Virus record (IMG/VR): IMGVR_UViG_3300033566_000060
Span: 1-64,000 of that record
Strand: one strand, 5' to 3'
DNA from: a virus
Length of the DNA stretch: 64,000 nucleotides
A program made the translations under genes and the position numbers. Shown here piece after piece: positions 1 to 27,284 of this stretch; positions within the stretch are counted from its first letter, which is position 1; every line of letters begins with the position of its first letter. The notes under the pieces are model-generated. The model searched no databases. It saw only the letters and a list, made by a program, of their open reading frames with translations, and was not told the DNA's origin.

Positions 1-3000
1 GAGCGCGCACAACAAGTAAGGGAAGCCGTGAAATCTTTTGAACCTTCCAACGAATACGAAGCAGCGTTACATTACATAGCATCCGGAGGTGGTATAAACA
101 CAGATTCTGCTTCTAAAGAAACCGGAGCTTCTAAAGAAACCGGAGTTTCTAAAGGAGAGGTGAAATGGGCTACAAATTTCAAGAAAAACGAGGATTTACC
201 ATCAGTGGAAAGAGCTTCGGAAATTATTGCCGAATCATCGTCAACACCTTTGGACCAACCATCCGTCCGAGATGCTATGATTGAAATCTTATCATCACAC
301 AAAAGTATTACTGAAGTACACGATAAGATTTTAGAGGCAAGAGAAGAAACAAATAAAAAACTAAAGGACGAAGAAAATCGTATCTTTATGGGTAGCTTAT
401 CGGAGCAGGAACGTACTTTTGTGGAAAGCAAATTAGCGGAAGATGATTATTTAAGTGAATTAAACGACGACGAAAAATTAGCGTATTATGAGCAACAATA
501 TGGAACAGAACAAGAAAGGAACCAATCAGAAAATAGATTGGACGGATCCGAGCAAACTAACGGACAACCAGAGAGCGGCAATCCAAGCGTACAAGAACGT
601 GAAGGAGCGCAACCAGGCAAAACAGCAACCGAAAAAATAACCGAAGACAATCTTCCGGACATCAACAAAAAAGGAGCGTCAAAAACCATTCCTTTGTCCG
701 ATGCTGTGGAAGCGAAAGTGTCCGTTCAGGAGTTTATGGACGGGGAAAACGGCTATTCCGTACAGCTTTTCAACAACGGAGAATTGGTGGAGGACAAACA
801 CGGCGATACCGAAACAGAATTCACTTCCGATGAAACTTCCGATTTGGTAAAATTCCTTGAATCCAAGAAAAAAGGGTATGCGTTAAGCCAAAAAGGTAAA
901 ACCGGAAAACCGGAAGGAATTAAAGTGGAGGTACCCAACCAAAAAAGAAGGGTTTCCTTCAATATGTTTGGTGTGGAGATGTTCGGGGAACAGCAGGAAG
1001 ACGGTTCGATTATTGCAGATGACAATTCAAAATACTCCAAAGGAATGCAATCCAATGGTGTGATTACCGATGTAGTGGGTATCGATGAAGGTAAAAACTA
1101 TCGAAATGAGGGTGATGTAGCCACACAGGGATTTGGTGGCGGACAACGTACCGACAGTTCGCTTTCCAAAGGAGGCGGTTCGATGTCCCGTAATTACTAT
1201 AAGAATAAAGTAAAAAGAGCATGGAACCGCTTGTTTAAAAGTAATGCAGGACTAGACCACAAATCAGGGGAAACATTACGTTCATTACAACGAGACATCG
1301 ATTACCTTCAGGATTTGATGGGTACCGACTCTGGTATTTTTAAAAACGTATTGAAAGCCACGCAAAAAGCATCTAAAAACAAAGAAGACTTCAGATTGAA
1401 GTTATTGGCTTTGAACCGTTACATGCAAGGTGGTGGAGGTAATCTTGACTTCTTAGGAAAGAACGAGAAAGCACAACTATCCTACCTTAGAGACAGAATC
1501 GATTCGTTAAGCGAACAGGTAATCAATACGTTGCAGGACCAAGCAGACGGTTTACCTGATGGGGATAAAAAAACTGCGTTATTAGAATTTATCCAAAAGT
1601 TAAAAGACAATAAAGGGAAATATGTCAACCGTTCGTATCAGATATTTCATGACGAAAAATACCGTGAGGGAATGGCGATGGCATATGACAAGATGCCTAC
1701 GGAATACCGAAAGCGCTACGATACGGCAGTGAATTTCATGATGCGTGAAGAAGGGATGACCAAAGAAGAAGCACAAAGCTATATTTCCGGTTATTTGGAC
1801 GATATTATCCGAAGTAAGAACGACATATCACAAGGATTTGCCGGACGTGCCGATGCGCCGTTTTTGAAAAAAAGAAAAGATTTGCCGATAGAATTTCAGG
1901 AATTATTAGGAGTCGTTCGTGATCCTTTGGAGAATTATTTACGCACGGTGGATAAAATATCGAGATACCTTGCCTCGTTGAAGTATCAGGAGAAAATGAA
2001 AAGCCATTTGTTGGAATCCGGAATTGGTATTACCGAACCGAAACAAGGTTATACCAAACTGACAAGTGACGTAAAAGAATGGGAAGCATTGAGCGACATG
2101 TACGTTCCAGTGGAATTCAAACAAGCCATGGAAGACATGTTACCATTGGATAAGGTAAACCAATACGTTTTCAGAAAATGGATTGAGTTTGCTTCCTTGA
2201 CTAAAGTAGGTAAAACGGTATTGAATCCATCAGGGGTATTCCGTAACTTTATGTCGGGTACGTTTTTAGGACTGAATGCCGGACACTTTACGTGGACCAA
2301 CCCAAAAACGATGGGAATGGCTTTCAACCAGGCGCTCAAAACAAACACCGCAAAAAAAGGAATGGCAGGACTCCGTAAAGAACTGATTGAACAAGAGATT
2401 ATCGGTTCCGGAGCCGACTCTCAGGAGATGCTTACCTTTATGAATGACTTTTCCAACAGCATCGACAGAAAACTGTCCACAAACCCGTTGGTGCCGATAA
2501 TGAACGGAATGCAAAAGGCGTATGCTTTTGGGGATGACTTTTATAAAGTGTCCGGGTACATGATTGAGAAAAAACGTTTGATAGACACCGGAGTTTCGGA
2601 AGCAGAGGCAACACGCATGGCCGGAGAAAGAATACGAGGCGGTTATCCTACATATTCGTATCTACCGAGAGCGTTCAAGGAATTACGCCGTATTCCGTTG
2701 GTGGGAACTTTTATTTCCTTTCCTTACGAAGTGGTGCGTTCCACAAAAAACAACGCAATGTATGTGCATGAAGACTGGACTGAAGGAAGAAAGGTGATGG
2801 CGATGCAACGTGCCGCCGGAATGATGGTGGCCAACGTATTACCAACCGCATTAGCAGCGTATGTGGCAGCGGGATTGGGTGTTGATGATGAAGATGACGA
2901 TAAAATCAGGGAATTGCTTCCGGATTACCAACAGGACGCTTTGTTGATGTATTACGGTAAGGACGAAAAAGGCTATCCTAAGTTTGTGGATTTAACCGCT

Positions 3001-3930
3001 TTTGCACCATCGGAAGTAATCGTGAAGCCGTTACGTATTGTGATGGAAGAAAGAGAAGGCAGGACTGCTAAAGAAAAAATGGAAAAATCCATTATAGAAG
3101 TATTAAAACCATATTTGGGTGCCGACCTTTCGTACAAGACCGCAAATGAGTTAATGACCAACAACGATGAATTCGATAAAAAGATTTATCAGGCGGACAG
3201 TTTTTATGAGGCATTGACCAATAAAAAAGACCTGACACAGATATTGAATTACTACGCCAAGAAAGCCGGTCCCGGAGTGTATTCCAATGTCAGCGACTTT
3301 TTAAGAGCGAACGATAAGGGAAGTGAAGTGTTGGGGGATAAGTTTACGGCGTATGGGAAAGAGTACACGAATTTCGATGCTACGTTGGGATTCTTTGGGA
3401 TTCGCACCTCAACTGTAAACTACTCACAAGCGATTGTGAACAACAACAAAAGAACCACCGCTGTACTTAACGACAACAAGGAGTTTTTAAGAAAAGCAAT
3501 GAAGTCAACCACTAAAATGGCGGATGATCGCTTACAAATGAATTTCGATAGTTATGTAAAAGGAGAAGACGAAGCGTACAAAAAAGTATTGCGTGGGGTG
3601 GAAATTGGATTTAAATTCAATATCAATAAAGGGGAGATGGCAACGCTTTTTGAAAGTTCCAACTATTCCAAGAAAGACATCGCATTTTTGGTGAACGGAT
3701 TCCAACCACCTTACGATTACATCACCAAGGAAACAGCAGTAAACAAGATTACAGAAATAAGGAGCAACTACGATGCGGAAAAAGCAAAAGAGGTTGTACA
3801 GAATTACAAAAGCAATATCGAGCGATTCAACGATATGGTGGATTCAAAAAACAGAGCGTTATACGAATCCAACGGAGAGATTTATAAAAAACTGTACGGC
3901 AGATTTGGAACAAAAAACCCACTTAAATAG
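1..3930 (+). CDS. large virion-associated protein, 5'-partial (open at window edge)
   Basis: Frame 1 has no stop from base 1 to TAG 3928-3930, so the listed GTG at 28 is not the real start. More than 1300 codons. One internal hydrophobic helix (MMVANVLPTALAAYVAAGLGV). No enzyme motif recognised. It would follow the late module if the genome is circular or permuted. Confidence 0.85.
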   Translation, partial: ERAQQVREAVKSFEPSNEYEAALHYIASGGGINTDSASKETGASKETGVSKGEVKWATNFKKNEDLPSVERASEIIAESSSTPLDQPSVRDAMIEILSSHKSITEVHDKILEAREETNKKLKDEENRIFMGSLSEQERTFVESKLAEDDYLSELNDDEKLAYYEQQYGTEQERNQSENRLDGSEQTNGQPESGNPSVQEREGAQPGKTATEKITEDNLPDINKKGASKTIPLSDAVEAKVSVQEFMDGENGYSVQLFNNGELVEDKHGDTETEFTSDETSDLVKFLESKKKGYALSQKGKTGKPEGIKVEVPNQKRRVSFNMFGVEMFGEQQEDGSIIADDNSKYSKGMQSNGVITDVVGIDEGKNYRNEGDVATQGFGGGQRTDSSLSKGGGSMSRNYYKNKVKRAWNRLFKSNAGLDHKSGETLRSLQRDIDYLQDLMGTDSGIFKNVLKATQKASKNKEDFRLKLLALNRYMQGGGGNLDFLGKNEKAQLSYLRDRIDSLSEQVINTLQDQADGLPDGDKKTALLEFIQKLKDNKGKYVNRSYQIFHDEKYREGMAMAYDKMPTEYRKRYDTAVNFMMREEGMTKEEAQSYISGYLDDIIRSKNDISQGFAGRADAPFLKKRKDLPIEFQELLGVVRDPLENYLRTVDKISRYLASLKYQEKMKSHLLESGIGITEPKQGYTKLTSDVKEWEALSDMYVPVEFKQAMEDMLPLDKVNQYVFRKWIEFASLTKVGKTVLNPSGVFRNFMSGTFLGLNAGHFTWTNPKTMGMAFNQALKTNTAKKGMAGLRKELIEQEIIGSGADSQEMLTFMNDFSNSIDRKLSTNPLVPIMNGMQKAYAFGDDFYKVSGYMIEKKRLIDTGVSEAEATRMAGERIRGGYPTYSYLPRAFKELRRIPLVGTFISFPYEVVRSTKNNAMYVHEDWTEGRKVMAMQRAAGMMVANVLPTALAAYVAAGLGVDDEDDDKIRELLPDYQQDALLMYYGKDEKGYPKFVDLTAFAPSEVIVKPLRIVMEEREGRTAKEKMEKSIIEVLKPYLGADLSYKTANELMTNNDEFDKKIYQADSFYEALTNKKDLTQILNYYAKKAGPGVYSNVSDFLRANDKGSEVLGDKFTAYGKEYTNFDATLGFFGIRTSTVNYSQAIVNNNKRTTAVLNDNKEFLRKAMKSTTKMADDRLQMNFDSYVKGEDEAYKKVLRGVEIGFKFNINKGEMATLFESSNYSKKDIAFLVNGFQPPYDYITKETAVNKITEIRSNYDAEKAKEVVQNYKSNIERFNDMVDSKNRALYESNGEIYKKLYGRFGTKNPLK
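109..162 (+). repeat. 18-bp in-frame tandem repeat (two exact copies plus one diverged)
   Basis: gcttctaaagaaaccgga occurs at 109-126 and 127-144, followed by gtttctaaaggagaggtg at 145-162. It encodes ASKETG-ASKETG-VSKGEV. Confidence 0.85.
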
Positions 3931-3945
3931 TGGGTTTTTTTCTTT
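3912..3945 (+). terminator. rho-independent terminator
   Basis: Stem aaaaaacccac / gtgggtttttt with the stop codon in the loop, followed by a T-run. Confidence 0.7.
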
Positions 3946-4122
3946 TTGTTAGGCCGCCATTCTTAATGGTTGTCCTAAAGTAATAACTTTTGCATTTATT
4001 GTTTTTGTTCTCCTTATTACCTAATATTCTATTGTCAAAGCCAAGCACCCCCAAATATTATAGTTTATTATTTGTTTCCCTGACTATAAAAGGGAATAAA
4101 GCAACTTTACACGTTTTACTTG

Positions 4123-4153
4123 TGGAGGTGGAGGGAGTCGAACCCTCGTCCAG
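4123..4153 (-). other. tRNA/tmRNA 3'-end-like fragment (T-arm plus 3' acceptor strand); candidate attP core
   Basis: The minus strand reads CTGGAC-GAGGG-TTCGACT-CCCTC-CACCTCC-A. That is a canonical T-stem/loop plus a 7-nt acceptor strand. No matching 5' acceptor strand (GGAGGTG) lies upstream, so it is a fragment and not a gene. Confidence 0.45.
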
Positions 4154-4282
4154 ATAGCGTTCAATAATACGTCAACGAACAGTTCAAATATACTTTTTTT
4201 TATTAAAAAAACAAAACTTCTTTTTTTCTTTACTCACCGGTTACGATTTCCGGATCGATGACTTCGATTTCTTTTACTTGTT

Positions 4283-5220: not shown

Positions 5221-5319
5221 TACGCAATGCGTTTTTTTGAATAGATTTTAATTAATGACTTATTTCGCAATAAGTTACAAAATATATTTTTTTTGTGCAT
5301 TGCGTATATATGCGAGTTA
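5221..5319 (-). repeat. terminal hairpin closing the minus-strand cassette array
   Basis: After the TAAC of cassette E (plus-strand 5316-5319), a 10-bp stem forms between TACGCAATGC (5221-5230) and GCATTGCGTA (5297-5306). An inner hairpin ACTTATT/AATAAGT is present. No following GTTA box. Confidence 0.6.
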
Positions 5320-5328
5320 GCAGTAATA

Positions 5329-5586
5329 CTACTCAACATTGTCTATATCTCCGTAAGTTTCTAATTCACATTTTTTGTTTAGTAAAATTAAATCTTCCAT
5401 TTTACCAACTACATGAACAGTTTTCCATTTGTTATGATAGTCTTTCATGCTTTTTAATTTTACGTTAAATTCTTTATGATATTTTTTAACGCATTCGGCA
5501 AATTTTATCGGAACATTTGAAATTAAAGTACTACTGCTAACATCGGTTTTGTTCAATGCCTTGTTTTGGTCTTTTTCTGTATTCAT
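5329..5586 (-). CDS. hypothetical protein (cassette E cargo)
   Basis: Boxed by GTTAGCAGTAGTAC (plus coords 5528-5541) and GTATTACTGCTAAC (5316-5329). The ATG lies in the loop of the upstream hairpin. There is no ATG close downstream of the 5' box; the first is 27 codons in. Confidence 0.7.
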   Translation of the reverse strand: MNTEKDQNKALNKTDVSSSTLISNVPIKFAECVKKYHKEFNVKLKSMKDYHNKWKTVHVVGKMEDLILLNKKCELETYGDIDNVE

Positions 5587-5665
5587 TCCATTTAATTTTA
5601 AGTTAGTGTTTACTTGTTGTGTTCAGTTTTAAATCAACGGCACTAAACAAAGCCGAGAACCGTTA
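5538..5665 (-). repeat. attC-like imperfect hairpin element (between cassettes D and E), 128 bp
   Basis: Minus strand reads TAAC-GGTTC-TCGG-C-TTTGTTTAGTGCC ... GGCATTGAACAAA-A-CCGA-T-GTTA. About 18-bp stem with a C:A mismatch 6 nt from GTTA. The loop contains the start codon of the next ORF. Confidence 0.8.
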
Positions 5666-5672
5666 GCGGTAA

Positions 5673-6101
5673 TTATACATCAACTTCATGTGAAAAAGAT
5701 TCGTATAAATATCTTTGTCCTAATTTCGTTAAAGTCCATTTTTTAGTAACTAATCCTAATTCCTCAACAATACATTTTGCTGTATGACCTGTATAATATC
5801 CACCTGCGCATTTCAATAATGTGCTTCTTAGTACATCGCGTTTTTCACAATCACCAAAATTTGCATTACCCCAAGCATAAATCAATTGTTCGTCTGAAAT
5901 TATTTTTTTCAACTCGCCATTATAACTACCGCTAACATTGGTTTTATGCAATTGCAAGGCTTGGTCTTTTTCTGCCGTGATTATTTCTTTTGCCTTTAAT
6001 ACATCCTCTACAAGTTTTTTACCTGTTGTGGTTAATGAATCAGTCAAATTCCAATCAAATTTGTCATGCAATAGTTTTAAAATTTCTTCGTAATCTTCCA
6101 T
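5673..6101 (-). CDS. hypothetical protein (cassette D cargo fused to a hairpin-encoded N-terminal segment)
   Basis: Boxed by GTTAGCGGTAGTTA (5923-5936) and TAATTACCGCTAAC (5662-5675). The first ~45 codons lie inside the enlarged hairpin loop. The conserved LQLHKTNVSGS segment is encoded across the right arm and the box. Confidence 0.7.
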   Translation of the reverse strand: MEDYEEILKLLHDKFDWNLTDSLTTTGKKLVEDVLKAKEIITAEKDQALQLHKTNVSGSYNGELKKIISDEQLIYAWGNANFGDCEKRDVLRSTLLKCAGGYYTGHTAKCIVEELGLVTKKWTLTKLGQRYLYESFSHEVDV

Positions 6102-6157
6102 AATTTTTGTTTTGTTAAGTGATTAATCTTTGCAACTGCATAAAGCCTTTGACGTTA
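5933..6157 (-). repeat. attC-like hairpin element, enlarged (225 bp, between cassettes C and D)
   Basis: Stem formed by plus-strand 5940-5957 and 6130-6147 (ggttttatgcaattgcaa / ttgcaactgcataaagcc) with one G:T pair and the conserved C:A mismatch. The ~170-nt loop carries 45 codons of ORF 5673..6101. Confidence 0.7.
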
Positions 6158-6526
6158 GCGGCAATACTTGACGTGCTTCCGTAAATCATTCGGCAGTTGA
6201 TAAACGGTAATCAATCTATTGTCGCAAAAGAAAAATATGTTTTCACCATAAATTCTTACGTTGTTGCAATGCTTGTAATTGAACCAAAGTTTTGTCAGGT
6301 ATCTCATTAGACTGCCTTTTGTGTCCTTATGTCTTACACCTTCCAAAAAAGCCTTTTCAGCCATTTTATCCAAAACTTTTGACTTCCAATTCAGCCTTTC
6401 TTTTGCTCTTTCGTAGGCGTGTTCCGTGATTAGTACTGCCGCTAACACAGGTTTTGCGTCAGGCGGGCATACGTTGTTATCTTCAACTTTTATTTCTTCT
6501 ATCATCTTTTGTGGTTTTATGAACAT
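6155..6526 (-). CDS. hypothetical protein (cassette C cargo)
   Basis: Boxed by GTTAGCGGCAGTAC (6433-6446) and GTATTGCCGCTAAC (6154-6167). The stop codon lies inside the 3' box. Start moved to ATG 6526 in the hairpin loop, because the track start at 6577 lies in the previous cassette's 3' box. Confidence 0.65.
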   Translation of the reverse strand: MFIKPQKMIEEIKVEDNNVCPPDAKPVLAAVLITEHAYERAKERLNWKSKVLDKMAEKAFLEGVRHKDTKGSLMRYLTKLWFNYKHCNNVRIYGENIFFFCDNRLITVYQLPNDLRKHVKYCR

Positions 6527-6570
6527 TTGTAATTCTAATTCCCGCCCGAACGCAAAGCCTCGTAACGTTA
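6443..6570 (-). repeat. attC-like imperfect hairpin element (between cassettes B and C), 128 bp
   Basis: Minus strand reads TAAC-GTTAC-GAGG-C-TTTGCGTTCGGGCGGG ... CCCGCCTGACGCAAA-A-CCTG-T-GTTA. It has the same C:A mismatch position and one bulge. Confidence 0.8.
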
Positions 6571-6579
6571 GGAGCAAGC

Positions 6580-7061: not shown

Positions 7062-7187
7062 TAACATCGGTTTGAAAGCAATGGCAAAATATGTGGTTTA
7101 ATCACGTTTATCTTTCGCAAGAAATTCATTAGTAACGGAAAATTTATCTTTCCGAAATTTGCCACTGCTTCAAGCCGAGTACCGTTA
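7062..7187 (-). repeat. attC-like imperfect hairpin element (between cassettes A and B), 126 bp
   Basis: Minus strand reads TAAC-GGTAC-TCGG-C-TTGAAGCAGTGGCAAA ... TTTGCCATTGCTTTCAA-A-CCGA-T-GTTA. About 22-bp stem with the C:A mismatch and one bulged C. Confidence 0.8.
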
Positions 7188-7196
7188 GCGGTAATA

Positions 7197-7472
7197 CTAA
7201 TTTACATCATCATTCCATAAAGGATGGTCGCAATTATCACAAAAACCAACTCTTATTTCTCTATTATCTTTCTTTACGTTTATTTCCTTACAATCTGTAC
7301 ATTCATAAATTTTGAATCCAACAGGTAAAGCACTACCGCTAACACTGGTTTTATGCAATTGCAAGAGTTGTTTTAATTCAGTAAGCAACTGTTCATTTAA
7401 TTTTGTTATCGAACCGTGTTCTTTTGATAATTCAAGAGCTGTTATTTTATCTTGTACTGTTTTAAATTCCAT
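7197..7472 (-). CDS. zinc-ribbon protein (cassette A cargo fused to an N-terminal leader)
   Basis: C-terminal CxxC...CxxC (YECTDCKE...FCDNCDH). Boxed by GTTAGCGGTAGTGC (7330-7343) and GTATTACCGCTAAC (7184-7197). The leader ends in LQLHKTSVSGS, nearly identical in DNA to the cassette D leader. Confidence 0.7.
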   Translation of the reverse strand: MEFKTVQDKITALELSKEHGSITKLNEQLLTELKQLLQLHKTSVSGSALPVGFKIYECTDCKEINVKKDNREIRVGFCDNCDHPLWNDDVN

Positions 7473-15115: not shown

Positions 15116-15213
15116 GAGGTGTTGCAAAATAAAACCGTAGTGTTTATTGGTGTTTGCGACGATTTGTTACAATCGGGGGGAGATTGTAACGGTAAAATCG
15201 TGTTGAAAATATT

Positions 15214-15261: not shown

Positions 15262-15387
15262 TAACGGTTCGCAGCTATACGAAGGGCGGGATTTAAAAAC
15301 AAAAATTTAATATGATGCAGAAAACTTTATTTGAAAACGAGAACTTGATTGAACCACTAAAACCCGCCTTTTGTATAGGTGCTGTTA
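15262..15387 (+). repeat. attC-like imperfect hairpin element H0 (head of plus array), 126 bp
   Basis: TAAC (15262-15265) plus GGTTC spacer. Stem 15271-15290 pairs with 15363-15382 (two G:T pairs, one G:G mismatch 5 nt from GTTA). The 72-nt loop contains ATG 15312. Ends in GTTA 15384-15387. Confidence 0.8.
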
Positions 15388-16346
15388 GCCGCAGTACTTT
15401 GTTGTTCGGGGATTGCTTGATTGAAAGCGATAAAATAGAAAGTGGCTCAGTTGATTTAATATTGACCGATTTGCCTTATGGAAATATGAAGGGATTAAAT
15501 TATAAAGTATTTAATAACCCCAGTAAAGATAACGGTGGTTTGATTTGGGATAATACGATTGATGCAAATAAAATAATGCAAATAGCAAACCGAATACTTC
15601 GTAAAAATGGTAAAATGCTTTTATTTGCTCAACAACCGTTCACGACTGAATTAATAAATGCACAAATACCAAACTTACCGCATTCTTATAATTTAATTTG
15701 GGAGAAAACAGACTTTGCAAACTGCTTATTAATAAATAAGTCTTGTGCTAATTTTTATGAAGATATTTTGATATTTAGTAAGAACCACCAAAAACACGAC
15801 TTTGAAGGAATGCACCCATTAAGACATTATTTTAAAAAAGTTATGGATTTTATAGGGCTTAATAAAAAAGCGATAGTTGAAAAGATAGGACAAAAGGCAG
15901 ACCATACATTTAGAACTGATAGTACTCAATACGGATTATGCACCGAAAAAACATACTTAGAATTGATTGAAGTATTTGGTATTGATAAAATAGAAGGATT
16001 TAAAACCTTTGCAGAATTAAAGCAAATTGATACTGAATATAGAACTGACTTATTAAAGCAAATGAATAACCAATACCCAAGTACTTTTAACCTTTGGGAG
16101 GGCAACAAATACAAAAGCAACATTTTGAAATACAAAAAGGATTACAACGGCTATCATCCTACTCAAAAACCTATTTTATTGCTTGAAGATTTAATAAAGA
16201 CTTTTAGTAACGAAGGTAATTTAGTAGTTGACTTAACAATGGGTAGCGGCTCAACTGGAGTTGCTTGTAAGAACACAAATAGAAACTTTATCGGAATTGA
16301 GAAAGATGAAAATTATTATAATGTCGCTGTACGGAGGTGTTCTTAG
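15312..16346 (+). CDS. DNA methyltransferase, N4/N6 beta-class (cassette 1 cargo)
   Basis: DLILTDLPYGN (motif IV, DPPY-like) precedes the C-terminal VVDLTMGSGSTGVAC (motif I). Boxed by GTTAGCCGCAGTAC (15384-15397) and GTATTGCGGCTAAC (16346-16359). The first 24 codons lie in the hairpin. Confidence 0.8.
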   Translation: MMQKTLFENENLIEPLKPAFCIGAVSRSTLLFGDCLIESDKIESGSVDLILTDLPYGNMKGLNYKVFNNPSKDNGGLIWDNTIDANKIMQIANRILRKNGKMLLFAQQPFTTELINAQIPNLPHSYNLIWEKTDFANCLLINKSCANFYEDILIFSKNHQKHDFEGMHPLRHYFKKVMDFIGLNKKAIVEKIGQKADHTFRTDSTQYGLCTEKTYLELIEVFGIDKIEGFKTFAELKQIDTEYRTDLLKQMNNQYPSTFNLWEGNKYKSNILKYKKDYNGYHPTQKPILLLEDLIKTFSNEGNLVVDLTMGSGSTGVACKNTNRNFIGIEKDENYYNVAVRRCS

Positions 16347-16355
16347 TATTGCGGC

Positions 16356-16481
16356 TAACGTCCTGCCACTTGGCGATGTGGCAAAAAAGTACGCCCGAAT
16401 TATCGGATTATTACAAGTGCGTAAGGCACAAAACCAATTATAAATTAAGCCTGAACTTGCCATATTGCCAAATGGCTGTTA
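16356..16481 (+). repeat. attC-like imperfect hairpin element H1, 126 bp
   Basis: TAAC plus GTCCT spacer. Stem 16365-16384 pairs with 16457-16476, with C16369 opposite A16472 and two G:T pairs. 72-nt loop. Ends in GTTA 16478-16481. Confidence 0.85.
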
Positions 16482-16512
16482 TGTGAGGTTGTGGGTTTTT
16501 AAAACAGATTTT

Positions 16513-16950
16513 ATGACAATAAACATTGATTTTGATGGAACTTGTGTTACTCACGATTTCCCAAACGTAGGAAAAAGTATTGGTGCTGAAAAAGTGCTAA
16601 AAAGATTAGTAGATAATGGACATCATTTGATATTATTTACAATGCGTTCTGATAGAAAAGAGGCAAAACCTGTAATTGACCCAACAATACAAAATGTAAC
16701 AGGTAAATTCTTAACAGAAGCGGTTGAATGGTTTAATAGAAATGATATTAAACTTTACGGAATACAGAAAAATCCAACACAATTAAATTGGACTACTTCG
16801 CCAAAAAGCTATGCTGAATTAATGATTGATGATAGTGCATTAGGTTGTCCGTTAAGATTTGATGCAGAAGTTTCAGAAAGACCATTTGCTTGTTGGGAAA
16901 CAATTGAGCAGTATCTGGAGAATATGGGTTGTTTTAAAACGCAATCGTAA
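16513..16950 (+). CDS. HAD-superfamily phosphatase-like protein (cassette 2 cargo)
   Basis: N-terminal DFDGT (DxDxT) motif. Boxed by GTTATGTGAGGTTG (16478-16491) and CAATCTCACATAAC (16951-16964). Start taken at ATG 16513, downstream of the box. Confidence 0.6.
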   Translation: MTINIDFDGTCVTHDFPNVGKSIGAEKVLKRLVDNGHHLILFTMRSDRKEAKPVIDPTIQNVTGKFLTEAVEWFNRNDIKLYGIQKNPTQLNWTTSPKSYAELMIDDSALGCPLRFDAEVSERPFACWETIEQYLENMGCFKTQS

Positions 16951-16960
16951 CAATCTCACA

Positions 16961-17076
16961 TAACGTTACCTCGCTTGGCTTAGTGCCGAGTTATGAAAAC
17001 AATAATTTATAATTTAAAATAAACGTGATGAAAAACGATATAAACGAAAATAAGGCATTGAGCCAAACGAGTGTTA
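16961..17076 (+). repeat. attC-like imperfect hairpin element H2, 116 bp
   Basis: TAAC plus GTTAC spacer. Stem 16970-16987 pairs with 17054-17071, with C16974 opposite A17067. The loop holds the GTG/ATG at 17025/17028. The arms resemble those of the minus-array element at 5538-5665. Confidence 0.85.
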
Positions 17077-17360
17077 GGCGTTGTTTTGCTAATTCATTGC
17101 CTTTTTACGAATACCCAATTCCAGAAGAAAACAGAATTAAAAAATTATTTTCTGAATTTGAAATTAGAGAAATTGGTATTAAAAAAGTTACCGATAGAAT
17201 TCGTAAAGAAATGGGTGCGAAATTTAATTGCAATAGAGTTGAAGTTGATTGGATTACTTCTGAATTAAAAAAACCAACCAAAGATACTTTAAAGGCAATT
17301 GAATGGTTTGACGATTATAGATTTCCTAATAAAGTTAGACGTCTTGAAAATAACGCCTAA
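17028..17360 (+). CDS. hypothetical protein (cassette 3 cargo)
   Basis: Boxed by GTTAGGCGTTGTTT (17073-17086) and AAATAACGCCTAAC (17348-17361). The stop codon is inside the 3' box and the start is inside the H2 loop. Leader NKALSQTSV parallels NKALNKTDV of ORF 5329..5586. Confidence 0.7.
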   Translation: MKNDINENKALSQTSVRRCFANSLPFYEYPIPEENRIKKLFSEFEIREIGIKKVTDRIRKEMGAKFNCNRVEVDWITSELKKPTKDTLKAIEWFDDYRFPNKVRRLENNA

Positions 17361-17486
17361 CGTTCGAGTGCTTGCAGAAGTTAGGGAAAAGTAAGTACTA
17401 ATTTTCGATTAAAAAACTAATAATAACAAACACAAACCAAGCCATCAAGTAAAGCCTAAAACCCTAATTTTTGCAAACACTTGTTA
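17358..17486 (+). repeat. attC-like imperfect hairpin element H3, 129 bp
   Basis: Stem 17366-17386 pairs with 17462-17482 (21 bp, several G:T pairs, C17371 opposite A17477). 75-nt loop. Ends in GTTA 17483-17486. Confidence 0.85.
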
Positions 17487-17508
17487 TGTGCTGTTAATTT
17501 ATCTACAA

Positions 17509-17739
17509 ATGAAAATAGTAAAAATTGAATTAAAAGACAGTATTTTTTATGTTACCAAAAAGCCTAATCTTTTAGAAAAAATATTTGGCAAAAAAGAAAA
17601 AGTTGAAAGATATAGAACAAACAACGATGTATTTCACTATTTCAATCACGTAACTGTTTTTTACAAAGAAGATGGTTCTATTGTTTCTATTAGCAATAAA
17701 ATGTGTGATGTTCTTAATAACTACTTACGTTCTTTTTAA
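17509..17739 (+). CDS. hypothetical protein (cassette 4 cargo)
   Basis: Boxed by GTTATGTGCTGTTA (17483-17496) and TAATAGCACATAAC (17737-17750). ATG 17509 chosen because the track GTG at 17488 lies inside the box. Confidence 0.65.
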   Translation: MKIVKIELKDSIFYVTKKPNLLEKIFGKKEKVERYRTNNDVFHYFNHVTVFYKEDGSIVSISNKMCDVLNNYLRSF

Positions 17740-17746
17740 TAGCACA

Positions 17747-17874
17747 TAACGTTCCGCAACTACACGTCTGTTGCGTAAAAGAACAAAACCATCTTTCAGT
17801 TTAACACGGATTTGAAAGGTACAAAACCAAATATAAATTAATCACAATGTAGCAATAGCGTGTAATTGCTGTTA
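17747..17874 (+). repeat. attC-like imperfect hairpin element H4, 128 bp
   Basis: Stem 17756-17766 pairs with 17859-17869, with C17760 opposite A17865. The loop shares ACAAAACCAAWTATAAATTAA with H1. Confidence 0.8.
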
Positions 17875-17889
17875 TAAGCAGAACGAGTT

Positions 17890-18291
17890 ATGAAAAATAA
17901 AATTTTTGTTTTAGAAGATTTAGATTTTTATTTACCTGATAGTTTTAAAGGAATGGGTAAGCAGTACTTATTAGATTGTATTTTTAACGATAAAATACAA
18001 CGTAAATGGTCGCCAAAAATAGGGGATGTTATGATTGGATGTACTGGAAATATATTTGTTGTTTCATCAGAACACAAACTCAAAGAAGTTTTAGGCGGAA
18101 ACTTATTCTTTTTTGGTGGAGGATTATGCAATAGAGATGGTGGATGTACTCTTAATGACACATATTCATTAACTATGAATAAAAGTGGAAAATGGATTCA
18201 ATACACTAAAGGAGGTTATGAAGAAACAAGCAATCCTTATCACAGTTCGTTTTCTGATTTCAGATATATTCCTTATCCACACGAATTGTAG
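17890..18291 (+). CDS. hypothetical protein (cassette 5 cargo)
   Basis: Boxed by GTTATAAGCAGAAC (17871-17884) and GTTTTGCTTATAAC (18291-18304). It has its own ATG 6 nt after the 5' box. Confidence 0.7.
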   Translation: MKNKIFVLEDLDFYLPDSFKGMGKQYLLDCIFNDKIQRKWSPKIGDVMIGCTGNIFVVSSEHKLKEVLGGNLFFFGGGLCNRDGGCTLNDTYSLTMNKSGKWIQYTKGGYEETSNPYHSSFSDFRYIPYPHEL

Positions 18292-18300
18292 TTTTGCTTA

Positions 18301-18356
18301 TAACGGCTATATGTACAAAACCTTCTAAACCATTAATAAAATAAACACTATACGCC
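18301..18356 (+). repeat. degenerate terminal hairpin abutting the recombinase start codon
   Basis: TAAC-GGCTATATG ... CACTATACGCC-ATG. Weak stem with bulges. The loop keeps the ACAAAACC motif of H1/H4. No GTTA box follows; the recombinase ATG takes its place. Confidence 0.5.
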
Positions 18357-19157
18357 ATGAAAAACTCAAACTTTGTACAAAAATATGAGAGAGATTTAAA
18401 AGTTAAAAACTACTCTCAGAATACTATTAAAAATTATGTTGCACAGATCAATATGTTTTTGGGCTATTTCAAAGAAAAGGATAGCCCGAAACATATCTCT
18501 TCAGACGACATAAAAAACTATCTTTTAACCGCCAAGGAAGTAAATAGTCAACGGCACATGCATTCGGCAATAAAACTGTTCTACAAGTTAACGGTACATC
18601 AGCCTAAAAAGTTTCAATTTATAGAGTATTCCAGGCGCGAAAAACGTTTGCCAAAAATAATCGATAAGGATTACATTATTCAACAGATTGGTAAAATTGA
18701 AAACGTAAAGCATAAAGCGATTATAACGCTTACTTTTTCCACCGGAATGCGTGTTTCAGAAGTATGCAATTTAAAAATAGAAAACATCGACAGCAAAAGA
18801 ATGTTGATTCTCATTAAAAACGCAAAAGGGAATAAGGACCGATATGTTCCTTTATCGCAAACAACACTGGAAACATTACGCATTTACTTCTTAGAATATC
18901 ACCCAAAAGAATATTTATTCAATGGCCAATTTGATTTACAGTATTCACACCGGAGCTGTAACCAGATTGTAAAGAAGTATCTCGGCAACGAATATCATTT
19001 TCACCAATTGAGGCATTCGAACGCTACCGCACTTCTGGAAGCCGGAACCGATTTGAGATATATACAGAAACATCTTGGACATTCGAACGTAAAGACAACA
19101 GAAATATATTGCCATGTATCAACCGCTATGCTTTCAAAATTAAATTTACCAATCTAA
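18357..19157 (+). CDS. small Xer/IntI-like tyrosine recombinase
   Basis: SAM-like N-terminal domain (YSQNTIKNYVAQINMFLGYF). Catalytic set: TGMRVSEV (R), GKGNKDRYVPL (K), HQLRHS (HxxR), GHSNVKTTEIYCHV (H...Y). At 266 aa it is shorter than canonical IntI. Confidence 0.85.
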   Translation: MKNSNFVQKYERDLKVKNYSQNTIKNYVAQINMFLGYFKEKDSPKHISSDDIKNYLLTAKEVNSQRHMHSAIKLFYKLTVHQPKKFQFIEYSRREKRLPKIIDKDYIIQQIGKIENVKHKAIITLTFSTGMRVSEVCNLKIENIDSKRMLILIKNAKGNKDRYVPLSQTTLETLRIYFLEYHPKEYLFNGQFDLQYSHRSCNQIVKKYLGNEYHFHQLRHSNATALLEAGTDLRYIQKHLGHSNVKTTEIYCHVSTAMLSKLNLPI

Positions 19158-20430: not shown

Positions 20431-20454
20431 ATTTTGGTTTTAAAGAAAAATAAT

Positions 20455-20462
20455 TATCTTTG
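20455..20462 (+). promoter_or_regulatory. -7 promoter box TATCTTTG
   Basis: Perfect TAnnTTTG match 25 nt after the int stop. No ORF follows it. Confidence 0.45.
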
Positions 20463-20467
20463 TCTTA

Positions 20468-20570
20468 TCAATTCGGCTCGACACCTTATTGATTTAAGGT
20501 GAAGCTGTTTTGATGAAAGACACATTAACCCCTAATAAGAATCGTCGAGCCTTCTTGTTAGGGTTTTTGT
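20468..20570 (+). ncRNA. candidate ~100-nt small RNA (promoter to intrinsic terminator, no ORF)
   Basis: Closing helix GGCTCGAC (20475-20482) / GTCGAGCC (20544-20551). Inner hairpin ACCTTA-ttgatt-TAAGGT (20483-20500). Terminator CCCTAATAAGAA / TTCTTGTTAGGG plus TTTTT (20530-20568) overlaps the 3' strand of the closing helix. Confidence 0.4.
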
Positions 20571-20911
20571 TTTTGTCGTAAATCACGTTTGCGGAAACCT
20601 TTAAACTTCTTACAAAATGAATCGTTAGATTCGGGATGCTCGACAGGAAGTACCAGACTAAAGCACAATGGTAGAGCGAAGTTTTAAGACTTTAAAGTGT
20701 GCGAAAGTTGCTAACTTAAATAAAGTAGCTTACCTATTCGGGCGATGAAACTCAACGGAAGAAAGTAATAGTTCCCAATGGATTTAAGCTGTTTTTTAGC
20801 TTATTTCTGTTGGGATAATTATACCTACTAAACAATAAAATCTAACAAAAGAAAGTAACTTTATTTATAAGTATAATGAATAAAAAAACTTTATAAATAA
20901 TAATATAATAC

Positions 20912-26640: not shown

Positions 26641-26913
26641 TTATTTAGACCATTTTGAACCTCTTGCTTTTGCTCTGAAAGCATCGATTTCATCTTGAGC
26701 AACTAAATGTCTTTTGTTGTTTTCAGCTTTCAATCTATCGATAACATATTCTATTTCTTCAGAAATAGTGCAAGTCATATCAAAAGTATCTTTGTACATA
26801 GTCAACACTTCTTTTAAAGTAACATATTCAAAACCATTTTCTCTCATTTTCTCTTGAGCAATTTCGATTATCTCGTTTCTGTTTTCTGATAAAAAAGTTT
26901 CTTTAGTTGTCAT
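26641..26913 (-). CDS. hypothetical protein
   Basis: Start moved to ATG 26913 (MTTKETF), downstream of a minus-strand -7 box. Confidence 0.6.
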   Translation of the reverse strand: MTTKETFLSENRNEIIEIAQEKMRENGFEYVTLKEVLTMYKDTFDMTCTISEEIEYVIDRLKAENNKRHLVAQDEIDAFRAKARGSKWSK

Positions 26914-26940
26914 AATTTCTATTTGTTTTATTTTGTTATA

Positions 26941-26948
26941 CAAATATA
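26941..26948 (-). promoter_or_regulatory. -7 promoter box (TATATTTG on minus strand)
   Basis: The plus strand reads CAAATATA, which is the reverse complement of TAnnTTTG. Confidence 0.4.
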
Positions 26949-27284
26949 CGACATCTTTTTGATTGTGCAAACTTTTTCAAAAGAAATTTTAATTTATTTT
27001 TAAATACTTGGAAAACAAAGAAAAACAACCAGTAACAACATGTATAGTAAATGTGGGTTTTAGGCTTAATTTGGAGGTAATTTTGTGTTAGAGAAATAAG
27101 TCTTGAACTGAAATGTTCCGCTTGTTTAATCCCACACTTCCCATACACGCAACCGATAAGAAAATACGCTTTCGTTTTTAAAAATTTCAATGCAGTTTTT
27201 TATATACCAGTTCCTTTCCGTTTTACTGAAAGTTTTCGGAAGTTTTGAAAGAATTTGTCTTATACTGTTCCCGTTGTGTAGTGT

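Follow-up and report, generated by a model that had tools for sequence, protein, structure and literature searches.

Hairpins resembling integron attC sites probably delimit gene cassettes in phages of Flavobacteriia

Integrons are regarded as a bacterial invention and are defined by a single clade of integrases. Short repeats that bracket single accessory genes, and that are thought to aid modular shuffling, also occur in the hyperplastic regions of T4-type phages (PeSL) and in the pdif modules of Acinetobacter. PeSL combine a promoter with a terminator-like stem-loop and act via homologous recombination, and pdif modules use 28-bp duplex XerC/D sites; to our knowledge, neither has covarying long AAC/GTT hairpins or an attI site beside a recombinase. 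The attC sites of integrons are imperfect palindromes with outer AAC…GTT cores, an inner stem and a variable loop, and the integrase IntI acts on their bottom strand (PMC2727003). The I2 helix of the integron integrases reads the extrahelical bases; it is held to be the innovation enabling single-strand recombination, and its gain by this clade to explain the shift to single-stranded hairpin substrates (PMC7790495). Xer recombinases also act on folded single-stranded DNA, that of the phage CTXφ: an I2-less Xer enzyme (XerCD) swaps one strand between attP, a hairpin folded from the single-stranded phage DNA, and a duplex site, and the whole phage enters chromosomal dif by means of host enzymes, neither cassette arrays nor a phage-encoded recombinase being described for it (PMC3442271).

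Among flavobacterial phages, attC-model (HattCI-type) hits have been reported in the virulent Polaribacter phage P12002L, and IntI1 recombines a hairpin of this phage in E. coli (Qi et al. 2023, PMC9892861). That study dealt with two sites per phage, read as stray integron parts, without linking them to a dedicated recombinase, to an attI or to arrays of 14-20 cassettes (PMC9892861). Apart from this two-site “CALIN”, we found no description of such a system in the searchable literature.

The 64,000-nt stretch of flavobacterial phage DNA analysed here (the window) contains ten site-like elements that cut the genome into swappable single-gene cassettes near a Xer-type recombinase, so that the phage appears to have an integron-like shuffling system whose enzyme is of another lineage than that of bacterial integrons. 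From the sequence we consider it quite probable that flavobacterial phages possess a cassette system of integron type, in which the hairpin at 16356-16481 (H1) and those related to it serve as attC-like recombination sites. As in integrons, the sites have AAC…GTT outer cores, an inner stem, a variable loop and a similar size, each cassette carries one ORF, and the cassette start complements its own site, so that a circle would rebuild the R box. The arrays likewise lie beside a tyrosine recombinase and a hairpin-less attI, and the crossover maps at AA|C in the 5′ box of the best-folding strand, with a G after AAC, which is also the geometry seen when IntI acts on the bottom strand of attC (PMC2727003). 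However, the system is not a canonical integron. The phage recombinase lacks the I2 domain of IntI, the R box has 15 bp instead of 7, and the two-armed spacer and extrahelical G/T of attC are replaced by a 4-nt bulge on the presumably cleaved arm plus a C×A mismatch. Moreover, the phage genes lie on the folding strand and read toward the attI site and the recombinase, contrary to the polarity of integron genes; the recombinase itself is co-directional with them at the 3′ end of the array, the Pc-type promoter found at attI in integrons is absent here, and the hosts of the system are phages of Flavobacteriia.

H1 lies on the plus strand, spans 126 nt between the cores TAAC (16356-16359) and GTTA (16478-16481), and scores 91 bits with a covariance model of these elements (R1). 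When folded as DNA it is predicted to contain, from 5′ to 3′, TAAC, a G, the 4-nt bulge, a 4-bp helix, the C×A mismatch, about 15 more pairs including G·T wobbles, a loop of about 66 nt, and a single T before GTTA. The mismatched C (16369) is the 10th nucleotide past TAAC and its partner A (16472) the 6th ahead of GTTA, just as a preliminary description made from the letters had placed them. That description took the C:A opposition to be constant; it is instead frequent, occurring in seven of the eight canonical copies of the window (P0 has G×G, one position earlier) and in only 25 of 48 family members. It also counted a spacer of 5 nt against 1 nt, which holds as long as the G after TAAC is unpaired; this G can wobble with the T before GTTA (46/48 members), and the asymmetry is therefore better called a 4-nt bulge of the 5′ arm. 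The two-armed, non-complementary central spacer of attC sites thus becomes here a one-sided bulge of 4 versus 0 nt, and the L stem has no single-base extrahelical bulge, its place being taken by C×A and the 4-nt bulge beside the R box. The rules of attC structure are followed in the AAC/GTT cores and the free-sequence L boxes, not in the extrahelical bases or the spacer. As for the loop, the 66-75 nt originally given agrees with H1, whereas no fixed loop length holds across the family, whose elements span 64-130 nt. The motif ACAAAACCAAWTATAAATTAA is, as described, common to the loops of H1 and H4. The length of about 126 nt and this partly conserved loop motif are left unexplained by an attC-like model.

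The ten elements of the window comprise eight canonical hairpins with TAAC…GTTA cores, a variant with a giant loop and a degenerate copy; the window was searched both with our own scan and with R1, with filters off. R1 gives the eight canonical copies 66-108 bits (E from 7e-11 to 5e-19), well apart from the best background match in the 64 kb, of 19 bits, and even H2, which was no part of the training set, reaches 73 bits. The plan proposed for H1-H4 and three minus-strand elements was recovered by both approaches. The plus-strand array starts with P0 (15262-15387, 90 bits) and continues, after H1, with H2 (16961-17076, 116 nt), H3 (17358-17486, 102 bits) and H4 (17747-17874, 108 bits); on the minus strand, our scan found M1 (5538-5665, 91 bits), M2 (6443-6570, 78 bits) and M3 (7062-7187, 66 bits). 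All copies in the R1 search are intergenic and run in the orientation of the ORFs, with close contacts between both: the ORF ahead of H3 takes its stop codon from the TAA of the H3 core, the methyltransferase ORF starts within the loop of P0, and a cassette ORF starts within that of M2. The giant-loop variant (5933-6157, minus strand) is not detected by the covariance model and was read from the sequence by eye; its arms, GGCTTTATGCAGTTGCAA on the 5′ side and TTGCAATTGCATAAAACC on the 3′ side, pair with each other, one C×A being mismatched and one G·T wobbling, and the ORF at 5673-6101 begins within its loop of about 170 nt.

Known RNA and transcription signals were also compared with the elements. 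Intrinsic terminators are short GC-rich hairpins with a T tract, and our copies are of another kind: a terminator scan flagged only minor sub-hairpins within them, and GTTA is followed by a cassette extension, not by a terminator-type T tract. At the gathering threshold, Rfam (where the attC model is not included) gives nothing at the elements and only a permuted tmRNA elsewhere. An integrated prophage at that tmRNA was considered for the window and rejected, since the source contigs are of about 70 kb, phage-sized and permuted, and the large ORF encodes a virion protein. A polycistronic transcript probably spans the hairpins, with promoter motifs of the type TANNTTTG (Bacteroidetes -7) at 15210 and 15246, only upstream of P0; the idea of such a promoter in every loop was dropped, as the loops of H1-H4 lack the motif.

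The thermodynamic z-scores of the window copies are modest (-0.5 to -3.8) and weak alone, so the weight is placed on covariation. Across 48 family members, TAAC and GTTA are invariant (48/48), and compensatory changes occur in 14 of the 15 variable pairs, in line with the earlier remark that the arms diverge in sequence yet remain complementary. Paired cells amount to 88.5%, versus 36-51% in controls with slid partners, which also reach a covariation score of only 0.12-0.14 compared with 0.538 for the true pairs; as the members were partly chosen by a scan for having the stem, the percentage of pairing is inflated, but the covariation is not. The structure of the arms is under selection. As in attC sites, the outer R″ and R′ boxes with their AAC…GTT cores pair, and the inner L″ and L′ boxes combine imperfect pairing and free sequence with a conserved structure. 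Outside the conserved mismatch, wobbles that exist only on the sense strand (G·T) are about six times as frequent as C×A or A×C, and the sense-strand fold is the more stable one in 6 of 8 copies; this bias fits an RNA structure equally well. All 60 R1 matches in related loci lie on the strand of the array and, in loci with a recombinase, upstream of it. Sister sub-families have CAAC/GTTG cores. R1 gives no matches on phages Freya, Ingeline, Leef and P12002L, where divergent hairpins, read by eye, have either those cores or a length of 56-58 nt. In P12002L our scan located two hairpins (38035-38090 and 38879-38936), which may correspond to attC1 and attC2 of the published study; as in our arrays, TAAC…GTTA hairpins there flank methyltransferase genes, in a flavobacterial phage without integrase.

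The plus-strand array comprises five single-ORF cassettes (15312..18291), the first with an N6/N4 DNA methyltransferase (15312-16346) and the others with ORFs ending at 16950, 17360, 17739 and 18291. In each of the five, the 11 nt that follow GTTA are complementary to the 11 nt that precede the next TAAC, except that position 7 is a T·G wobble. The same holds over 42 cassettes, where positions 1-6 and 8-11 are Watson-Crick complementary across the gene in 62-95%, compared with 19-50% in a control made of the two flanks of the same hairpin, and position 7 is T·G in 79%. Once a cassette is circular, its extensions would pair and restore a stem of 15 bp, a signature that supports a circular intermediate. 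The cassette unit would then begin with a hairpin and GTTA, run through an 11-nt R′ extension and a single ORF, and end in an 11-nt R″ extension followed by TAA(C). An alternative crossover at G|TTA, under which a cassette would, as in integrons, be a gene together with the hairpin that follows it, was rejected, because hairpins keep their downstream gene and never the upstream one.

An attI-like site closes this array at 18290-18330 (plus strand), about 55 nt upstream of the ATG of the recombinase. It contains the last R″ extension, TAAC (18301-18304) and the conserved GGCTATATGTACAAAACC, and has no hairpin. Its consensus, TAAC|TACTATATGTAAAAAA (TAAC|nnCTATATGTA), is kept in 13 related viral contigs with recombinases of 55-92% identity, and site and recombinase are also present in the Flavobacterium columnare prophage of CP197485.1, which has at least seven hairpins. 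A scan of viral contigs with the attI 15-mer gave mostly chance matches, with R1 hairpins in only 12 of 79 loci; in those 12, all R1 matches are on the strand of the motif and upstream of it. The minus-strand array ends in a second attI-like site (5295-5329, minus strand; GTATTACTGC TAAC TCGCATATATACGCAATGCAC), which has no adjoining recombinase and resembles the attI of phage Leef (GCTAAC GCCCCTATATACGCACC).

The presumed cassette recombinase is a 266-aa Xer/XerA-like tyrosine recombinase (18357-19157, plus strand; Pfam Phage_integrase, 1e-36). It aligns end to end and without gaps with the XerA structure 4a8e, and the catalytic residues are present; among NCBIfam models, XerA is the best (181 bits), and XerC, XerD and XerA all score below their cut-offs. 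The insert specific to IntI (the I2 helix) is absent, with 45 aa between the aligned blocks versus 93 in IntI4 (2a3v), and TIGR02249 gives 139 bits, in two stretches, versus a cut-off of 265. Homologues come mainly from metagenomes and Flavobacterium genomes, and the best-scoring 120 are named only ‘XerD’ or ‘tyrosine-type recombinase/integrase’. The association with hairpins is limited to recombinases at least 55% identical and to separate sub-families, and relatives in bacterial genomes at about 40% identity are mostly without hairpins.

Comparisons between genomes revealed the turnover of the cassettes. Homology between the window and one related contig (L058) begins at 18300, the TAAC of attI, and the upstream cassettes are unrelated; other related viral contigs similarly keep recombinase and attI and carry other cassettes. 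Phages sniff9-1 and hemulen6-1 differ by one unit bounded TAAC|…TAAC|, and the nucleotide similarity of the window to the whole sniff9-1 genome is confined to cassette pieces. P0 shares 94% identity with the hairpin that precedes this same methyltransferase in both phages, H4 is 89% identical to positions 5564-5690 of sniff9-1 next to different genes, H1 is 91% identical to positions 7675-7800 of contig L061 with different flanks on both sides, and cassettes of the H1 type have different neighbours in the window, in L061 and in L072. Cargo therefore varies among relatives, and the elements are not the fixed spacers that the preliminary description had named as an outcome against it. Among nine pairs of near-identical hairpins from different loci, the downstream flank is shared in five and the upstream flank in none; the four pairs that differ downstream too imply that exchange also takes place at GTTA or past it, and one crossover point alone does not account for this. 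In a sister sub-family, Polaribacter phage Freya_10 equals Freya_9 plus one cassette of about 300 nt, inserted exactly at CAAC|ACCCCTATAAC, the attI, 45 nt ahead of the integrase, which supports the view that new cassettes would enter at the attI beside the recombinase gene. Unrelated virulent Flavobacterium phages without the recombinase carry the same cassettes and keep long arrays, which presumably depend on a recombinase supplied in trans.

These data suggest the following course of events. A cassette would be excised as a circle, joining its R′ and R″ extensions, and the sense strand would adopt a fold made up of an R stem of 15 bp, one of them T·G, the 4-nt bulge, an L stem of 4 bp, C×A and about 15 bp with G·T wobbles, and the variable loop. 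The adjacent 266-aa enzyme would bind this folded strand and cleave after the TAA of the 5′ box. The crossover maps at the 5′ AAC of the sense strand in the sniff9-1/hemulen6-1 and Freya comparisons, which, like the wobble bias of that strand, is indirect evidence for a single-stranded reaction. We infer that the cleaved strand would be exchanged with attI (TAAC|nnCTATATGTA) upstream of the recombinase gene or with another hairpin, and that replication would resolve the product. Because attI lies just upstream of the recombinase gene, new cassettes would be added next to the recombinase, at the 3′ end of an operon whose promoter is upstream of the first hairpin, and the cargo would be phage accessory genes such as DNA methyltransferases.

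The same recombinase and cassettes could also work through double-strand exchange at the TAAC/GTTA cores, in the Xer/dif or pdif style, the hairpin being a by-product or having another role. The absence of the I2 helix counts against a single-strand mechanism, and a XerA/XerC/XerD-like enzyme, an attI without hairpin and the appearance of both TAAC and GTTA as exchange points would all suit a duplex reaction. Nonetheless, we judge it unlikely: fully divergent arms are still complementary, the bulge and mismatches are strand-specific and conserved, and the R extensions pair only when folded or circular, features that a duplex mechanism does not require. Sites for Xer/dif resolution are cargo-free duplexes of about 28 bp, with two 11-bp arms and a 6-8 bp spacer, one per replicon, and the window has ten structured sites with cargo. 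An even less probable view is that of hairpins acting mainly in mRNA processing, stability or translation control within an early operon, with polymorphism due to homologous or illegitimate recombination at repeats. It would account for the sense-strand wobbles, for the location in what is probably an operon, whose promoters are confined to the region ahead of P0, and for the several ORFs that start within loops. The cores, however, are invariant, C×A is not RNA-friendly, the 11-nt extensions pair across an entire gene, the hairpin-less attI adjoins a tyrosine recombinase, and terminator-type T tracts are missing from the hairpins; the break points fall exactly at AAC, Freya insertion included. 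Being at the DNA level, these break points make an RNA-only role, which the preliminary description had itself raised, insufficient as an explanation.

Two further readings have very little probability in our opinion, to about the same degree. Each hairpin might be an autonomous small mobile element (a MITE, a REP or an IS200/IS605-like element moved by an HUH or other nuclease) and no cassette boundary, as near-identical hairpins with both flanks different would indicate (H1 and L061 7675, H2 and L141 1653, H4 and sniff9-1). But the inverted repeats bracket genes, not hairpins, copies share one orientation and end at an attI beside a tyrosine recombinase, and the hairpin moves with its downstream gene in 5/9 pairs; the sniff9-1/hemulen6-1 and Freya sites differ by a whole hairpin-plus-gene unit, and among the annotated or called genes of the examined loci we noticed no HUH/TnpA gene. 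Alternatively, the hairpins might be ordinary attC sites (CALIN) derived from bacterial integrons and served by a host IntI, in keeping with their AAC…GTT cores and with the P12002L site, which attC-prediction tools picked out and IntI1 recombined (PMC9892861). Against such an origin, the arrays go together with an attI and a recombinase of their own, the latter lacking I2, the genes run with inverted polarity, the R box has 15 bp, a bulge replaces the extrahelical bases, and the names of the best-scoring 120 recombinase homologues never go beyond ‘XerD’ and ‘tyrosine-type recombinase/integrase’. The attC-like plan, R″-spacer-L″-loop-L′-spacer-R′, in turn fits the elements as first proposed, and finds support in the extended, cassette-specific R boxes around each gene, the variable cassette content of relatives, the attI-like site, the recombinase, the TAAC break points and the Freya insertion.

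In its full form, the preferred reading would be that an I2-less Xer/XerA-like family of flavobacterial phages and prophages runs a true cassette system on single-stranded DNA hairpins, a second, phage-borne ‘integron’ either convergent with the bacterial ones or near their ancestor. Temperate phages and virulent ones would exchange anti-defence and other accessory genes through it, the coding strand would bear the reactive hairpin, and cassettes would insert at the operon's distal end. Towards this extended proposal we lean only slightly. If true, a widespread phage system with integron logic and a Xer-like enzyme without I2 would challenge or refine the current view of integrons and offer a natural comparison for the evolution of hairpin recognition. 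It would also explain the exchange of methyltransferases and small accessory genes as discrete units among flavobacterial phages, strictly virulent ones included, and the ‘integrase’ genes of phages such as Freya, Leef and Ingeline, taken as a sign of a temperate lifestyle, may instead be cassette recombinases.

The tenth element of the window is a solitary, degenerate copy on the minus strand (27033-27158; 46 bits with R1, E 6e-7), in which TATC replaces TAAC. The sequence adjoining it (26910-27025) resembles a cassette of phage sniff9-1.

The hairpin H1 at 16356-16481 (+), TAAC-GTCCT-GCCA-C-TTGGCGATGTGGCAA…TTGCCATATTGCCAA-A-TGGC-T-GTTA, folds as the preliminary description had stated, and the evidence supports reading it as a site in an integron-like cassette system carried by phages. 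A simple search for TAAC…GTTA plus a stem found eight such hairpins in the window: P0 (15262-15387), H1, H2 (16961-17076), H3 (17358-17486) and H4 (17747-17874) on the plus strand, and M3 (7062-7187), M2 (6443-6570) and M1 (5538-5665) on the minus strand. All eight were recovered, at 66-108 bits, by a covariance-model search of the kind proposed earlier as a check; the model was trained on an alignment of 48 members of the long class, drawn from the window and related phages, H2 lying outside the training set. With filters off, nothing else in the window exceeded 19 bits apart from a degenerate ninth copy at 27033-27158 (-), with 46 bits. A tenth element, a giant-loop variant at 5933-6157 (-), was recognised by direct reading of the minus-strand array.

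RNAalifold predicted 20 pairs from the alignment of 48, and compensatory changes occur in 14 of them. With the structure imposed, 88.5% of cells are paired against 36-51% with slid partners, a percentage inflated by the choice of members partly for the presence of a stem; the covariation score, which is free of this inflation, was 0.538 against 0.12-0.14 for slid partners and was reached by none of 500 shuffles. The spacer asymmetry described earlier persists as a one-sided excess, not as 5 versus 1 nt but as a 4-nt bulge, where the G after TAAC wobbles with the T before GTTA (46 of 48 members). The C×A mismatch, present in seven of the eight window copies, turned out not to be invariant, as it occurs in 25 of the 48 family members, and a mid-stem G·T wobble in 33. 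In the 124-130-nt class total length is almost fixed, and the loops have in common A-rich conserved positions (…ACAAAAC…ATAAA-TTAA…, alignment loop columns ~70-100), which do not match the Bacteroidetes promoter motif. The cassette model accounts neither for a length that stays close to 126 nt nor for the partial conservation of the loop motif.

The window is part of a phage contig of ~70 kb; two JGI metagenome contigs, of 70,036 and 69,809 bp, carry an identical recombinase and have different start points. The hairpins form two arrays and lie between small ORFs, in every case in the orientation of the ORFs. The 11 nt 3′ of each GTTA (R′ extension) are the reverse complement of the 11 nt 5′ of the next TAAC (R″ extension), so that an inverted repeat brackets each gene, the classical signature of integron cassettes. 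Position 7 of this pairing is a T·G wobble without exception in the window and in 79% of 42 cassettes from many loci, in which positions 1-6 and 8-11 are Watson-Crick in 62-95% and complementarity ends past position 11; the two flanks of a single hairpin, taken as a control, pair in 19-50%. The extensions meet only in a circularised cassette, and the TAAC/GTTA stem would thereby reach 15 bp.

The plus-strand array ends in an attI-like site without a hairpin (18290-18330, GTTTTGCTTA-TAAC|GGCTATATGTACAAAACC), followed by the gene of a 266-aa tyrosine recombinase (18357-19157, +) and, directly after it, a 415-aa Bacteroidetes-type phage integrase (19183-20430, +). The ~460 nt 3′ of the integrase (20440-20900) are non-coding and may be attP; two integrases each have been reported for phages Ingeline and Leef (PMC8776804). 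A similar hairpin-less site ends the minus-strand array (5295-5329, -), with no recombinase adjoining. Among the cargo genes are two for DNA methyltransferases and others for small proteins of unknown function. Promoter motifs of the Bacteroidetes -7 type occur directly upstream of P0 and were absent from the hairpin loops in the motif scan, and a terminator scan found the window hairpins not terminator-like; the plus-strand array is therefore probably one operon with the recombinase as its last gene.

The same arrangement recurs in viral contigs with recombinases 55-92% identical, all of which have [variable 10-11 nt]-TAAC|TACTATATGTAAAAAA some 50-75 nt ahead of the ATG of the recombinase and 1-20 covariance-model matches, all upstream of the recombinase and on its strand. 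With the closest relative, L058, the window shares homology from 18300 onwards, starting at the TAAC of attI, and the cassettes upstream of it are unrelated. An exact search with the attI 15-mer gave many chance matches; 12 of the matched loci have hairpins as well, without exception on the strand of the motif and upstream of it. The recombinase family is large, and its 120 best-scoring proteins (259-279 aa, nearly all 266-267; 62-94% identical) are named, where at all, only 'XerD' or 'tyrosine-type recombinase'.

Several comparisons reveal the unit that moves. Compared with hemulen6-1, the virulent Flavobacterium phage sniff9-1 contains one more unit, with the bounds TAAC|hairpin-GTTA-ORF-TAAC|. 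Around the methyltransferase cassette, the upstream hairpin P0 is retained (94% identical) in the window and both of these Lillamyviruses, and the downstream hairpins differ; a cassette that begins with an H1-type hairpin (R′ TGTGAGGTTG … R″ CAATCTCACA) has different neighbours in the window and in loci L061 and L072. Similarity between the window and the whole sniff9-1 genome is restricted to cassette fragments, which indicates that cassettes pass between otherwise unrelated phages. The Polaribacter phages Freya_9 and Freya_10 belong to a sister sub-family, whose cores are CAAC/GTTG and whose recombinase shares 34% identity with that of the window. They are 99.7-100% identical either side of one ~300-nt hairpin-plus-ORF unit, which in Freya_10 is inserted precisely at the junction of …ACCAAC with ACCCCTATAAC…, 45 nt ahead of the integrase. 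Among nine pairs of hairpins at least 80% identical at different loci, five have the downstream flank in common and none the upstream flank. We conclude that a cassette is a hairpin with its downstream gene, that the crossover point on the coding strand is in, or directly after, AAC in the 5′ box, and that new cassettes enter at attI. Gene-bracketing inverted repeats, attI with its recombinase, and cassette mobility thus support the attC-like reading first proposed, and the hairpins are likely to be recombination sites on which the adjacent recombinase family acts. The model does not account for exchange that also parts hairpins from their downstream genes. Nor does it account for array upkeep in sniff9-1 and hemulen6-1, in which no tyrosine recombinase was found and which have 14 elements each, confined to one arm of the early region; the sniff9-1 array, too, terminates in an attI-like sequence.

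In the same Freya region, Freya_8 (L081) is without a 902-nt segment of Freya_10 (L003) ending exactly at …TTACCAAC, and in Freya_6 (L082) ~3.2 kb of Freya_10 are swapped for a different ~440 nt. Freya_10 also has an apparently empty cassette at 3755-3830 of L003 (GTTGGTAAAAGGCGGC…GCCGCTTTTTACCAAC), with a ~16-bp extended R pair, ~30 nt inside and no ORF.

With regard to the reactive strand, the coding-strand fold is the more stable in six of the eight window copies, and, with the conserved mismatch excluded, wobbles available only to that strand (G·T, T·G) are ~6x as frequent as C×A/A×C. In integron sites, the strand that folds and reacts is the bottom one; it is cut at AA|C in its 5′ box, and a G usually comes after AAC (PMC2727003). 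Both features also hold for the coding strand of the window hairpins, although the polarity of the folded strand relative to the genes is opposite. Fold bias and crossover position are independent lines that agree on the coding strand, whose folded form is slightly favoured as the substrate. The same strand bias would suit an RNA hairpin, and the elements may have an additional role at the RNA level.

The recombinase itself is a standard tyrosine recombinase by Pfam, with the catalytic Arg, Lys, His-x-x-Arg, His and Tyr all present. Its best NCBIfam models are XerA (181 bits), XerC and XerD, all below cut-offs, and the integron integrase model gives only 139 bits, in two pieces, also below cut-off. 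It aligns end to end with the XerA structure 4a8e (1.6e-32) and in two blocks with IntI4 (2a3v), between which it has 45 residues to the 93 of IntI4, and it therefore lacks the IntI-specific insert. The system thus works like an integron but without the IntI domain, the extrahelical bases and the two-armed central spacer, three features by which membership is judged, and differs further in its 15-bp R box, gene polarity and recombinase position. The switch of IntI to single-stranded substrates has been credited to gain of the I2 helix (Escudero et al., PMC7790495), which makes a hairpin system without I2 notable; recombination of folded CTXφ ssDNA by Xer shows that a hairpin is usable by an I2-less Xer enzyme (PMC3442271). 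A two-site 'CALIN', one site of which is recombined by IntI1, was reported in Polaribacter phage P12002L (Qi et al., PMC9892861), and our scan of that genome found two short TAAC…GTTA hairpins flanking a methyltransferase gene. The papers describing the Lillamyvirus and Freya phages mention neither hairpins nor cassettes, and literature searches turned up no account of such a system linked to a recombinase. A prophage in the Flavobacterium columnare chromosome (CP197485.1, 1227983-1248786; L202 5891-10000) has at least seven hairpins, attI (TAAC TACTATATGTATAAAAAA) and a recombinase 64% identical to that of the window, in this order; its host is a cultivable fish pathogen and a possible experimental model.

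Some cassette ORFs begin within a hairpin loop (15312, ~6510(-), 6101(-), 5586(-) and 17028) and read across the 3′ arm, GTTA (as Val) and the R′ extension. This segment encodes the peptide LQLHKT[SN]VSGS common to ORFs 7197-7472(-) and 5673-6101(-), and PHROG matches cover none of the part so encoded, beginning at residue 65 in 5673-6101(-) and residue 50 in 6155-6577(-). The stop codon of the preceding cassette ORF is supplied by the TAA of TAAC in at least two cases (17358-17360 and 6155-6157(-)). The first ORF of the minus-strand array contains, at 7330-7372 (-), a 3′-arm-like sequence with GTTA and R′ extension (CTTGCAATTGCATAAAACCAGT GTTA GCGGTAGTGC) and no matching 5′ arm upstream, which makes it a half-site at the boundary of the array or else a remnant. 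Elsewhere in the window, the surroundings are those of a phage genome: the 1300-aa ORF at 28-3930 encodes a virion structural protein, and its 3′ end is overlapped by ~70 nt by a permuted tmRNA-like gene at 3858-4214 (-), with tag peptide AKVITLGQPLRMAA, called by both ARAGORN and Rfam (RF04321, 65 bits).
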